From: a virus | Taxonomy: Duplodnaviria; Caudoviricetes | IMG/VR virus record: IMGVR_UViG_3300042291_001013 | Length of the DNA stretch: 64,000 nucleotides | Direction: 5' to 3' (one strand) | In this document: positions 28,756 to 33,910 of the stretch, piece after piece | Layout of the letters: every line of letters starts with the position of its first letter | How positions within the stretch are numbered: position 1 is the first letter of the stretch | Notes under the pieces: model-generated | Seen by the model: only the letters and a program-made list of their open reading frames with translations | Database searches by the model: none | What the model was told of the DNA's origin: nothing | Made by a program: the position numbers and the translations under genes

Positions 28756-29319
28756 GATGACACCATTGTCTATGGTTTGATAAACTATTTGCCAGCCCCG
28801 GGCTAACAAATAAACCACTACTGGTCCAGACTTACCAATCCAACAGTCGTTGTAACAATAGGTATCATCTAGCGCCACCACTGCTCTGGGAGCCAACACA
28901 TTGTACAAGGCCAACAACTGACTCATGTGTGCAATTTGACAGGCCTGATTGGTCATTGGCGTGCCATTGGAAGCATACTGCCGCATTTGAACTTCAATTG
29001 CTGGCGACGTATTGTTGATATCCCAGATGTAATCAAAGTTGTCTAGGTACAAAACAGCAACATCAGTGTAGCTGGTTGCAAATTCACGGGCCCAGGCAGC
29101 TCCGTCAGCCACAACAAATTGGGTATTGGTACAAGTTGATTCTAGCCAACTTTTGGCCTTGCTTAGTATGTCTACTGTGATGAGTTTGGTGTTGTGTGTG
29201 CTGGCCAAACGGTCTAGATACTGGCTAGATCCTTCGCCTCGGTCTGATCCTATTTCCACAAACACACCATGCACAGTATCAGGCAAGTGTTTGCCAATGT
29301 GTTGATATACCGTTCCCAT
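28735..29319 (-). CDS. Class I SAM-dependent methyltransferase-like protein
   Basis: VEIGSDRGEGS, LYLDNFD and VALDDT motifs. Confidence 0.75.
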   Translation of the reverse strand: MGTVYQHIGKHLPDTVHGVFVEIGSDRGEGSSQYLDRLASTHNTKLITVDILSKAKSWLESTCTNTQFVVADGAAWAREFATSYTDVAVLYLDNFDYIWDINNTSPAIEVQMRQYASNGTPMTNQACQIAHMSQLLALYNVLAPRAVVALDDTYCYNDCWIGKSGPVVVYLLARGWQIVYQTIDNGVILTRPEK

Positions 29320-31495: not shown

Positions 31496-32346
31496 TCTAA
31501 GGTTACTTGCTGTACCCATTGACGTCGGGCAATTTGAAATAGTAATTCTTCTCGACTGCCTGTGTACTCTAAATCTGCAACAGGAAATCGCAAGGGTTGT
31601 GCTTTTATATTATACACACTTGTGATGTTTTGTGCAACAAAAAAGTCTTGATGTTGGTCAATGTAGTGTTGTACTGACCCATATATTTTGCTCAGATTTC
31701 TATCATGAAACTGCACGTTGAAGTCTGCACTGTAGTGACTGAACGGGCAAAATGCATCATCAGCAATGTACTTATCGTTGTCATGAGCAAGGTCTTCTAC
31801 AGTTTTGCCAATTTCACAGTAATTTAGATACACGGTGCCAAACTTTATGTTCCAGTCGCCGTATGCACTTTGTAATTCAGGTGCAAGTTGATGTATCTTG
31901 GGCATGCCAAACCAAGTGCAAACAAATCTTGGTTGAGTACCTGCGGCAACACTTTCACATCTATGTACTGCCAAGTTTAATTCAGCCAAGGCTTGACGAA
32001 CTGACTCGGGCGCACGAAGCCAGTAGTCTGAATCTTGCTGATCCAGTAGCCCGTGGTAGCGTTCAAAGATGTTGTGCAAGTAATTGAGACAATCCTGTGT
32101 GTACTCAAATGGCCTGTGTATGATTGGATCCCAAAGATTGATTGTGGCAATGCAACGTTGAATGTCGGCCACAGCACGTTCACGCTCTTGTAGTGGAGTG
32201 CCAAATCCGTAAAATCTATTGGGATGGTCCAAGGGCCAAGCCTGACGCTCGTGCATACGTTGAGCCCACAAGTCTGCCACAGGTGTTTTACGAACACGAA
32301 AATTCAATGTCAGTGGGTCTTGTTGGCCTAGAGTAATCAAAAGCAT
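31492..32346 (-). CDS. Hypothetical protein
   Basis: 284 aa; its own TTGACT-17-TATACT promoter (32353-32381) lies 6 nt before the ATG. Confidence 0.75.
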   Translation of the reverse strand: MLLITLGQQDPLTLNFRVRKTPVADLWAQRMHERQAWPLDHPNRFYGFGTPLQERERAVADIQRCIATINLWDPIIHRPFEYTQDCLNYLHNIFERYHGLLDQQDSDYWLRAPESVRQALAELNLAVHRCESVAAGTQPRFVCTWFGMPKIHQLAPELQSAYGDWNIKFGTVYLNYCEIGKTVEDLAHDNDKYIADDAFCPFSHYSADFNVQFHDRNLSKIYGSVQHYIDQHQDFFVAQNITSVYNIKAQPLRFPVADLEYTGSREELLFQIARRQWVQQVTLE

Positions 32347-32384
32347 TGTAACAGTATATACTCACTGTAAACAAAAGTCAAAAA

Positions 32385-32419: not shown

Positions 32420-32452
32420 CCTGGGCCGGAGCCAACCGTTTGTATGCCCAGG
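32420..32452 (-). other. 3'-UTR hairpin with an anti-Shine-Dalgarno loop
   Basis: CCTGGGC/GCCCAGG stem; the loop contains GTTGGCTCC, the exact complement of the RBS at 33882-33890. Confidence 0.6.
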
Positions 32453-32466
32453 GAAACTTTTAAAAG

Positions 32467-32583
32467 TCAAGCGCCATAATATTCCAAACTCTTTACAGTA
32501 AAGCCTGCTTCTTGTTGCTCATCTGCTTCGTATTTTGTTTCTACAGAATACAAGTACAAATCACCATCCCAAATTTCAAACAT
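32467..32583 (-). CDS. 38-aa acidic micro-protein
   Basis: Manual translation MFEIWDGDLYLYSVETKYEADEQQEAGFTVKSLEYYGA*; TAATG-coupled, AAGGA upstream. Confidence 0.7.
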   Translation of the reverse strand: MFEIWDGDLYLYSVETKYEADEQQEAGFTVKSLEYYGA

Positions 32584-32756
32584 TAATAAGTTTCCTTTAC
32601 ATAGTTGTATTGATCCGCAGGCCATTGTGTTTTAAACTCTTCTGATTTGACATACTCATTGTATGCTTTGGCATCAAAAAACATTTTGCGGAACACTGAC
32701 GTAAACTGGCCCTTGAGAGTTACCGTTAGGTAAATGGATTTTGCTTTTCCTGCCAT
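32583..32756 (-). CDS. 57-aa hypothetical early protein
   Basis: GGAGA SD before MAGKAK. Confidence 0.7.
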   Translation of the reverse strand: MAGKAKSIYLTVTLKGQFTSVFRKMFFDAKAYNEYVKSEEFKTQWPADQYNYVKETY

Positions 32757-32757
32757 A

Positions 32758-32850
32758 TCAATCTCCAAATATTAAAATTATAAAAGCATAAAGTAGTGCC
32801 CAGATTGGGTGTCCTAACATTACCAACATTAGAACACCTATCCAGGGCAT
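32758..32850 (-). CDS. 30-aa hydrophobic membrane micro-peptide
   Basis: Manual translation MPWIGVLMLVMLGHPIWALLYAFIILIFGD*; fills the gap between the AAA stop and the next RBS exactly. Confidence 0.6.
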   Translation of the reverse strand: MPWIGVLMLVMLGHPIWALLYAFIILIFGD

Positions 32851-32851
32851 G

Positions 32852-33880
32852 TTAGGCTACCTTCATGCAAGTAGTTTCAGCCAGACGCTTCCAGTTCAAT
32901 ACTGACAGCTTGCGCAAGTCTGCAATCTTCAGCGCCATACGCAAGGATACCTCACGCAAACGATTCTTGTTGTCGTCCATAAACGTAATGATGTCGTCTT
33001 GAACAGCTTCTTCAAAGTCGTAGTCTGCAAACAGCACACCGTCTTTGGCAATCTGTTTGATACGCAACAATTTGTCACGCATGGTGTCCAAGGTCAAGTC
33101 CAAGTAGTGGCACCGGCTTTGCAGTGCGTCCAAGTGATCCCGCAATTTTTGCGACTTCATCTTGTCAAACTTAAGGTTGGTAATAAAAATTACACTACCT
33201 TTGAACTCAAAACGGTCTGGGATGCCTTCACGGCGCAGAGCACTAGACTCTGACAACCAGGAGATAACACGTTTTTTGCCGGAGTCCAGGGCACCCTTGA
33301 GCAAGTTAAGAGCAACGTCATCCAGCAGGATTGAGTCACAGTCGTCAAACACAATTACACAATTTGAGTCAGAATACTTGTAGAGTGTTTGGTACAGGCC
33401 AATCGGGGTAGCACTACCTTTAACAACCTCGGCACGTAGTCGCTTGCCGGCCAGCTTGTCAAACAAACAAGCCTTATCAATTTCTGTCTCAACGCCGTAG
33501 CTCTTGCCCACGCCTGGGGGGCCGCTCACAATCATAGCACGGATGTCACCGGTTACAGTGGCCTTTGTCATCTCATGCAGAATGTCAAAACGCTCACGGA
33601 TACGATCCATGGCCTGTTCGTCACTTTCAACAACCGAAACTGTCTTTTCAAAATGTACAGTATTATCTTGCACAGGGTCTACTCCATTAACATATTCAAG
33701 ATCACGTATGCCGTCAACACGGATACGCACGACATCAAACTCAGGGCCAAAATAGCCATCTGATTGTACAGTAACAAAGCCGCCTTTGCTACCAGTTTGG
33801 AAACCCTTAACTAGATTAAAGGTAACATTGTTCACGGGCTTGTTGCGATAAACACCGTTAATAACTCGAATTGCACTCAT
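32852..33880 (-). CDS. AAA-family ATPase (early gene)
   Basis: GPPGVGKS Walker A, VFDDCD Walker B, FITN and ALQSRC motifs; AAGGAG SD. Confidence 0.88.
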   Translation of the reverse strand: MSAIRVINGVYRNKPVNNVTFNLVKGFQTGSKGGFVTVQSDGYFGPEFDVVRIRVDGIRDLEYVNGVDPVQDNTVHFEKTVSVVESDEQAMDRIRERFDILHEMTKATVTGDIRAMIVSGPPGVGKSYGVETEIDKACLFDKLAGKRLRAEVVKGSATPIGLYQTLYKYSDSNCVIVFDDCDSILLDDVALNLLKGALDSGKKRVISWLSESSALRREGIPDRFEFKGSVIFITNLKFDKMKSQKLRDHLDALQSRCHYLDLTLDTMRDKLLRIKQIAKDGVLFADYDFEEAVQDDIITFMDDNKNRLREVSLRMALKIADLRKLSVLNWKRLAETTCMKVA

Positions 33881-33910
33881 AGTTGGCTCCTTTTTGTGCG
33901 TTAAAATTGT

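Follow-up and report, generated by a model that had tools for sequence, protein, structure and literature searches.

A 3′UTR element complementary to the ribosome-binding site of its own early ATPase transcript covaries with that site across a clade of lake jumbo phages

In the single-stranded RNA phages MS2 and Qbeta, the ribosome-binding site (RBS) of the replicase gene is masked by a distant RNA segment in the 'Min Jou' interaction, and in the int/sib retroregulation of lambda a 3′-located RNA element represses the upstream gene. Small RNAs (sRNAs) derived from 3′ untranslated regions (3′UTRs), such as those of the CpxQ, SdhX and DapZ type, have a seed upstream of their own terminator and act in trans on other genes. 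Very few natural bacterial-type mRNAs have been documented to control their own RBS from the 3′UTR. In icaR of Staphylococcus aureus, base-pairing of the 3′UTR with the Shine-Dalgarno (SD) sequence blocks initiation and creates an RNase III substrate, and the authors called this a singular example (PMC3868564). In Bacillus subtilis, anti-SD-like sequences lying hundreds of nucleotides (nt) from an RBS repress expression by long-range folding (Gill et al. 2025 preprint, PMC12697547), and 5′/3′ pairing in the hbs mRNA protects the 5′ end and controls RNase access (PMC5737220). Here we describe a 3′UTR element in a stretch of 64,000 nt (hereafter, the window) from a virus of the Caudoviricetes (Duplodnaviria; IMG/VR record IMGVR_UViG_3300042291_001013). 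Just before the terminator of an early transcript, the loop of a hairpin (hairpin 1) contains a sequence, which we call the anti-RBS, that is complementary to the RBS of the AAA ATPase gene on the same transcript. The comparison of related phages indicates that the pairing between the two sites is almost certainly real, and natural selection for this pairing is well supported.

The ATPase RBS reads AAGGAGCCAACU-AUG. Its segment GGAGCCAACU forms nine Watson-Crick pairs and one G-U pair with GGUUGGCUCC in the 3′UTR, and the energy of this duplex is −18.2 kcal/mol. A previous sequence-only reading of this DNA had proposed that a loop antisense to the ATPase RBS, with nine pairs and a G-U, is presented by a CCUGGGC/GCCCAGG hairpin upstream of the terminator, and our analysis confirmed this description. 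The length that it gave for the UTR, about 60 nt, was an underestimate; counting from the last stop codon at 32467 and ending with the T-run at 32380 gives nearer 87 nt. When the 3′UTR of the window was shuffled 2000 times, none of the shuffles produced a 9-nt complement to the RBS. The sequence GGAGCCAA was counted six times in the window, compared with an expectation of 1.64. A second minus-strand occurrence of TTGGCUCC (28889-28896) was dismissed as a candidate because it lies inside a coding region and is not part of a hairpin.

To compare the two sites among relatives, we used metagenomic viral contigs of IMG/VR that were retrieved with the ATPase protein (the best 80 per query of at least 400 relatives). 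After removal of duplicates, 125 distinct loci were obtained, in which the ATPase shows 75-93% amino-acid identity to that of the window. Many of these relatives were sampled from lakes and other fresh waters, and some of their contigs had lengths of 340-350 kilobases (kb). At 114 of the 125 loci, the ATPase RBS had at least eight contiguous Watson-Crick pairs with a site that was followed by a T-run within 100 nt downstream. The length of the Watson-Crick run was 8 at 8 loci, 9 at 39, 10 at 35 and 11 at 32. Among the remaining loci, three contigs were cut short (L049, L201 and L216), one locus had an 11-bp (base pair) match followed by an interrupted T-run (L046), three had seven Watson-Crick pairs plus a G-U each (L028, L032 and L038), one had 7 + 4 pairs flanking an internal loop (L117) and one had eight pairs with a 3-nt bulge (L149). 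Only L087 and L158 seem truly to be without the element. The distance from the ATPase stop codon to the anti-RBS varied from 3 to 1731 nt because the intervening small open reading frames (ORFs) come and go, and the distance from the anti-RBS to the terminator T-run was always 8-64 nt.

The RBS sequences fell into at least 10 classes, each with an exact complement in its own 3′UTR. Class 1, the commonest, has the RBS GGAGCCAAC followed by C, U or A and accounts for 92 of the 125 loci; its partner is GGUUGGCUCC, which was found in a hairpin loop before the terminator at all class-1 loci except the cut-short contigs and one locus whose score came from a spurious A/U-rich run. At loci with C instead of U before the AUG, the G-U pair of the window becomes a G-C pair. 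In the other classes, the RBS GGAGCGAAA is accompanied by the 3′UTR site UUUCGCUCC, (CA)GGAGUUAAA by UUUAACUCC(UG), GGGCUAGAAA by UUUCUAGCCC, GGGCUAGUAA by UUACUAGCCC, GGAGCUAA(C) by (G)UUAGCUCC, GGAGUUGGC by GCCAACUCC, AGGAGCUA by UAGCUCCU, GGAGCUAG by UUAGCUCC, and CAGGAGC by GCUCCUG. Two of the classes other than class 1 do not have GGAG as the SD sequence, and the complement still tracks the RBS. The anti-RBS is 9-11 nt long, and the complement covers the SD sequence and the spacer, sometimes reaching the start codon. When each locus was placed in register, the offsets −10 to −2 from the AUG were 86-100% Watson-Crick, compared with 6-45% in the flanks. Two or three pair types occurred at eight of these nine offsets, and −10 had a single type. 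The footprint of the helix is thereby the SD sequence and the spacer, offsets −10 to −1, and nothing beyond.

Cognate combinations of RBS and 3′UTR gave Watson-Crick runs of 7-11 nt, in contrast to 4-7 nt for combinations of unrelated classes. These contiguous run lengths replaced a matrix of RNAduplex energies (28-nt × 60-nt segments), which was too noisy because nucleotides locked in local hairpins get used. For most classes, the observed run was reached in ≤4 of 2000 shuffled 3′UTRs; this support was weaker for two classes with 7-nt runs. On a maximum-likelihood tree of the ATPase, class 1 is spread throughout and the variant classes require 13 label changes. Well-supported branches force at least nine departures from class 1, every class retains its partner, and the number of independent class switches is at least 9-12. 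Distant branches also carry similar UTR pairs (two GGGCUAG classes and two GGAGCUAA groups). These results indicate that the matched state is re-established many times, via substitution or exchange of both ends. The sequence-only reading had named, among its checks of the pairing, a search of related phages for compensatory covariation of loop and RBS, and the result of this check is clearly positive.

These comparative data bear on two explanations that do not involve selected RNA pairing. Any pyrimidine-rich CUCC matches GGAG, and GGAGCC itself is not enriched in the window (18 occurrences versus 15.4 expected), as would suit a chance similarity of a CUCC-containing loop to a GGAG-containing RBS. 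However, the match runs 5-7 nt past GGAG in every class, its two sides change together at several positions, it has arisen more than once, and neither non-cognate combinations nor shuffles show it. We therefore consider chance to be refuted, with hardly any probability left to it. The second explanation is that the arms act at the DNA level, as inverted repeats flanking a mobile or recombining cassette or as targets of a DNA-binding protein. In T4-type phages, modular shuffling of genes is mediated by PeSL promoter/stem-loop cassettes (PMC2839356, PMC4122927), the ATPase unit is bounded by promoter/terminator cassettes of this type, and its content from the ATPase gene to the terminator is highly variable. 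In contrast, PeSL recombination uses direct, not inverted, repeats of promoter and SD sequences (PMC2839356), and a protein site would keep its sequence rather than switch among at least 10 complementary pairs. Moreover, one arm is exactly the SD sequence plus spacer, and the other lies in an exposed RNA loop with a covarying stem. At 10 further distinct terminators in the DNA flanking the loci of the relatives, no complement to an upstream RBS was found, indicating that terminators in these phages are not as a rule accompanied by RBS pairing. A DNA-level role is accordingly very improbable.

Contigs of different classes were found in single metagenomes, namely 3300027963 (L015, class 1; L028, GGAGCUAG class), 3300006875 (L022, class 1; L048, GGAGCGAAA class) and 3300046804 (L001, class 1; L219, GGAGCUAAC class), indicating that the classes coexist in one habitat. 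At locus L117, the anti-RBS UUUUUCGCUCCUG is a perfect complement of the GGAGCGAAAAA-type RBS, as in L048, and its own RBS is CAGGAGCUUUAAAA; this locus may be an intermediate between two classes.

The element appears to be confined to this clade of lake jumbo phages. Searching cultured phages at the DNA level with the entire region gave no match, and the homologous loci of T4 (nrdC.10), KVP40, Vibrio phage D495, Cronobacter S13, Acinetobacter W16, Klebsiella KP01, Xanthomonas BUDD and Aeromonas Riv-10 showed no cognate RBS complement close to the terminator. BUDD does have an 11-nt match, 719 nt downstream, where the annotated genes are on the opposite strand; it was treated as chance. In the PA5oct-like Pseudomonas phage vB_Pa-PAC2 (L230), the RBS GGAGUAGCAUUU can pair with GGAUGCUACUUU through eight Watson-Crick and four G-U pairs; the latter sequence is the 3′ arm of a small hairpin about 18 nt past the stop codon of the homologous ATPase gene. 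This weak candidate is possibly a remote equivalent of the element in a phage that has been cultured, and a scan of viral contigs for relatives of the PAC2 locus found none.

The structure around the anti-RBS was analyzed in an alignment of 80 distinct class-1 3′UTRs. All 10 columns of the anti-RBS were invariant, and the 5′ half of the hairpin-1 loop varied in length (4-9 nt) and sequence. Compensatory changes were present at seven of the seven stem pairs of hairpin 1, the terminator stem covaried too, and the linker between the anti-RBS hairpin and the terminator was a near-invariant UUU(U)A. In 12 class-1 loci (L026, L033, L051, L055, L060, L063, L098, L100, L137, L143, L145 and L150), the 5′ half of the loop is the SD-like sequence GGGAG(U/C)A. 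It is possible that this sequence is a built-in competitor that would pair with GCUCC of the anti-RBS in the same hairpin and modulate its accessibility. When all classes were considered, two layouts were observed. Four classes have the anti-RBS in the 3′ part of a hairpin loop, with 0-1 nt between it and the 3′ stem arm; in the remaining classes it is single-stranded and immediately 5′ of a stable hairpin. The linker between the anti-RBS and the adjoining strand of the stable helix is 0-3 nt in every class, and the long-range helix could stack on the local helix in both layouts.

Folded alone, the 3′UTR of the window forms two hairpins, hairpin 1 and the terminator (−31.1 kcal/mol, z = −3.1). 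In the fold of the whole mRNA (1524 nt), the minimum-energy structure contained the 10-bp RBS/anti-RBS helix with pair probabilities of 0.89-0.92, and the helix was also in the minimum-energy fold of nine full-length relatives from five other, non-pseudoknot classes, with probabilities of ~1.0 over the core.

We consider, with moderate confidence, that 5′-3′ pairing within the ATPase mRNA masks the SD sequence and the spacer once the full transcript exists. The early ATPase mRNA bears the anti-RBS in its 3′UTR, close upstream of the terminator, where it is held single-stranded beside a stable helix. The 5′ end is made first, and ribosomes can load during synthesis of the mRNA. After transcription of the 3′UTR, the anti-RBS would pair with the RBS of the same molecule, the mRNA would close into a loop and further 30S binding would be blocked, so that each transcript would give a limited burst of ATPase. 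Because the helix lies exactly at the 30S binding position, masking of initiation is the most economical reading, and we infer the shut-off of translation from where the helix lies, across the SD sequence and the spacer. The repressive effect of the pairing, its formation in vivo and its action in cis are likewise deduced from sequence comparison and folding, and the pairing probably limits the time during which the ATPase is translated.

Several points weigh against this masking model. Translating ribosomes might keep the two ends of the mRNA apart. Cultured homologues (T4, KVP40 and six others) are without the element. In the loop layout, the RBS helix and hairpin 1 form a pseudoknot, which is beyond the folding program, and the fold of the window mRNA obtained the long-range helix only by dropping hairpin 1. 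In silico replacement of the 3′UTR by non-cognate ones raised RBS accessibility only modestly, from 0.23 to 0.26-0.38 and from 0.34 to 0.39-0.50. This effect is modest because the program finds other partners, and whole-mRNA folding is therefore no test of specificity; the argument rests on the covariation. Covariation, in turn, fits pairing in cis and in trans alike, and it fits repression as well as stabilization or processing of the mRNA.

The last two points lead to two rival accounts of the same pairing. The 3′UTR might be processed into a stable sRNA, comprising hairpin 1, the A/U-rich linker and the terminator, that represses the RBS of other ATPase mRNAs in trans; such an sRNA would accumulate along with the transcripts and turn ATPase synthesis off. 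The region does have the layout typical of 3′UTR-derived sRNAs, with an exposed conserved seed, a U/A-rich linker and an intrinsic terminator with a U tail. The covariation suits trans pairing as well, and cross-talk in trans, if it plays a part, would more readily account for the repeated class switching among phages of the same metagenomes. However, the sole covarying target is the RBS of the element's own transcript, targets on other transcripts were not found outside class 1 in the few kb covered around the gene, intramolecular pairing is kinetically favoured over intermolecular pairing, and a covariance-model scan of the whole 64-kb window against Rfam 15 at the gathering threshold matched no family. 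Action as an sRNA is thus a possible but unlikely account.

Alternatively, the pairing could be real and mainly govern the fate of the mRNA, either as an RNase III-like cleavage site or by protecting the 5′ end and its GGAG from endonucleases. Together with the adjacent hairpin, the helix would make a near-continuous helix of ~18-20 bp, and the position of the anti-RBS beside a stable helix in every class (the 0-3 nt linker) would permit coaxial stacking. There are precedents in the icaR pairing, which is an RNase III substrate (PMC3868564), in the sib retroregulation of lambda, and in the 5′/3′ interaction of B. subtilis hbs, which controls RNase access (PMC5737220). In contrast, the helix spans exactly the SD sequence and the spacer, as expected for 30S occlusion, and at 9-11 bp it is shorter than the usual substrates of RNase III. 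We regard a main role in mRNA fate as rather improbable, and cleavage or protection by RNases may coexist with translational masking.

That specificity has switched so often might hint at something further. The RBS/anti-RBS pairs might be incompatibility classes, in which an sRNA released from the 3′UTR also silences the ATPase mRNA of co-infecting relatives of the same class, much as antisense-RNA loops define the incompatibility groups of plasmids. Related phages sharing a lake would then be pressed to switch both arms together. Such pressure would explain why unrelated sequences have taken the place of the ancestral GGAGCCAAC pair at least 9-12 times, why similar UTR pairs occur on distant branches of the ATPase tree, and why several classes are present in the same metagenomes. 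We give this idea a low probability. A second speculative variant is a 'use it or lose it' switch: in monocistronic forms of the unit, the anti-RBS starts 3-6 nt past the ATPase stop codon, and every terminating ribosome would there need to unwind the helix and thereby re-expose the RBS.

The features of the locus are listed in Table 1.

Table 1. Features of the ATPase unit and of the neighbouring early genes in the window
Feature	Position	Strand	Remarks
Genes around the element		minus	All genes are on this strand
RBS of next upstream small gene, GGAGCC	34421-34416	minus	6 pairs with anti-RBS; own promoter 34467-34439
RBS of upstream small gene, GGAGCCAA then AA-AUG	34130-34123	minus	8 pairs with anti-RBS; own promoter 34179-34151
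Sigma-70-type early promoter of ATPase unit, TTGACC-17-TATAAT	33939-33911	minus	11/12 consensus matches
RBS arm GGAGCCAACU	33890-33881	minus	SD sequence GGAG plus whole spacer, directly before ATPase AUG
AAA ATPase gene, 342 amino acids (aa)	32852-33880	minus	AUG at 33880-33878
Three small ORFs between ATPase gene and 3′UTR	32467-32850	minus	Content and length vary among relatives
Very hydrophobic ORF, 30 aa	32758-32850	minus	Starts in TAACATG overlap with ATPase stop codon
Small ORF, ~57 aa	32583-32756	minus	
Small ORF, 38-52 aa	32467-32625	minus	
Hairpin 1	32420-32452	minus	7-bp stem CCUGGGC (32452-32446) / GCCCAGG (32426-32420), 19-nt loop
Anti-RBS GGUUGGCUCC	32437-32428	minus	3′ part of hairpin-1 loop, 1 nt from 3′ stem arm
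Intrinsic terminator, ACAGGUACC, 9-nt loop, GGUACCUGU, 7-U run	stem 32412-32386, T-run to 32380	minus	
Promoter of next unit, TTGACU-17-TATACU	32381-32353	minus	−35 box overlapped by terminator T-run

The promoter of the ATPase unit, which is kept in many relatives and gives a 5′UTR of ~25 nt, and the terminator bracket the RBS and the anti-RBS. There is no terminator between them, and the relatives share this layout. On the gene strand of the 64-kb window, the terminator of the unit is the single clean intergenic terminator. The ATPase belongs to the Pfam family AAA and to PHROG 1250, a group of unknown function (E = 3e-82); its homologues include T4 nrdC.10 (33% identity) and proteins of PA5oct-like jumbo phages (42%). 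Small ORFs for membrane peptides, resembling the hydrophobic ORF at 32758-32850, also follow the ATPase gene in several relatives. A tRNA scan of the window found none.

Upstream of the ATPase gene, three tandem TTGACC-17-TATAAT promoters are each followed by a short leader and a GGAGCC-type RBS. Since no terminator lies between these cassettes, which are similar to the shuffling cassettes of PeSL type, the nested transcripts should all end at 32380. The partial matches of eight and six pairs at the two upstream RBSs are as the sequence-only reading described them. Its proposal that the two neighbouring early genes are controlled as well was not supported, because in the few kb covered on either side of the gene, relatives of the other classes had the matching motif nowhere but at the ATPase RBS, except for a 6-mer at an upstream gene in L032. 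A simpler explanation of the GGAGCC motif shared in class 1 is the near identity of the tandem promoter cassettes. Accordingly, we regard the ATPase RBS as the specific partner of the anti-RBS, the GGAGCCAA RBS as a possible secondary target, and the GGAGCC RBS of the next upstream gene as probably a reflection of shared ancestry of the promoter cassettes, not of targeting.

Downstream of the terminator, the next unit (32344-32381, minus strand) begins with an ATG 6 nt past the −10 box; it marks the end of the ATPase unit and lies outside the helix. The mRNA of this unit is probably leaderless. An ATG 5-7 nt past the −10 hexamer, leaving no space for an SD sequence, was observed in 81 of 104 distinct relatives, whichever gene follows (for example in L001, L004, L017 and L022), which suggests that leaderless early mRNAs are conserved in this group of jumbo phages.

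The element is, on the comparative evidence, an unusually well-supported new natural instance of a known mechanism, the masking of an mRNA's own SD sequence by its 3′UTR, in the new setting of a phage early gene. In the open-access literature that we searched, we found no comparable case with this much natural covariation. Distant anti-SD-like sequences are generally purged, and here one appears to be kept and fine-tuned; a maintained anti-RBS offers a direct way to test whether phage early mRNAs carry a built-in translational timer. The at least 10 natural, mutually non-matching RBS/anti-RBS pairs are a ready-made orthogonal set for distinguishing action in cis from action in trans and for studying pairing rules. 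The finding also marks the nrdC.10-like ATPase, found widely among T4-like and jumbo phages, as one whose dose or timing is important to the phages studied here.

Among the phage systems, the masking segment of MS2 is located upstream within a translated gene and has its role in translational coupling, whereas the anti-RBS lies in the 3′UTR. The sib element of lambda is a local RNase III hairpin without RBS pairing, in contrast to the present element in the 3′UTR of an early mRNA of a double-stranded DNA jumbo phage. With sRNAs of the CpxQ, SdhX and DapZ type, the element shares a conserved seed just before an intrinsic terminator, an A/U-rich linker and a U tail; those sRNAs have targets in trans, whereas the only covarying target of the phage element is on the same transcript. 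Our literature searches, which covered open-access papers, found no report of a phage 3′UTR that pairs with its own RBS.

The genomic setting resembles the PeSL cassettes (Arbiol et al. 2010, PMC2839356; Comeau et al. 2014, PMC4122927), which join the stem-loop of a terminator to a sigma-70-like early promoter. As in those cassettes, the terminator T-run overlaps the −35 TTGAC, small gene cassettes of variable ORF content are bounded by these elements, and tandem early promoters lie upstream. PeSLs have been described as modules of recombination and expression, and the anti-RBS hairpin is an extra element upstream of the terminator. The SD sequence is merely a part of the cassette in PMC2839356, where the words 'complementary' and 'translation' do not occur.

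The anti-SD-like sequences of Gill et al. (PMC12697547) are also downstream and pyrimidine-rich, pair with the RBS, inhibit initiation and promote decay. They are depleted from native genes, whereas the phage anti-RBS is positively maintained and has a specificity that extends past the SD sequence. The closest likeness is to icaR (Ruiz de los Mozos et al. 2013, PMC3868564), in which an anti-SD in the 3′UTR pairs with the SD sequence of its own mRNA and makes translation self-limited. The phage element likewise is an anti-SD in the 3′UTR of its target's transcript, with complementarity over the SD sequence and compensatory maintenance. The two differ in that the icaR 3′UTR is long (the paper chose those of >100 nt) and uses a conserved UCCCCUG motif, whereas the phage 3′UTR is <100 nt and has its motif beside the terminator; one belongs to a bacterial regulator and the other to a phage early gene, and they show no sequence homology. 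The icaR pairing is supported by experiment and the phage pairing by extensive natural covariation. Because the phage pairing spans the whole spacer, it is gene-specific, unlike that of icaR.

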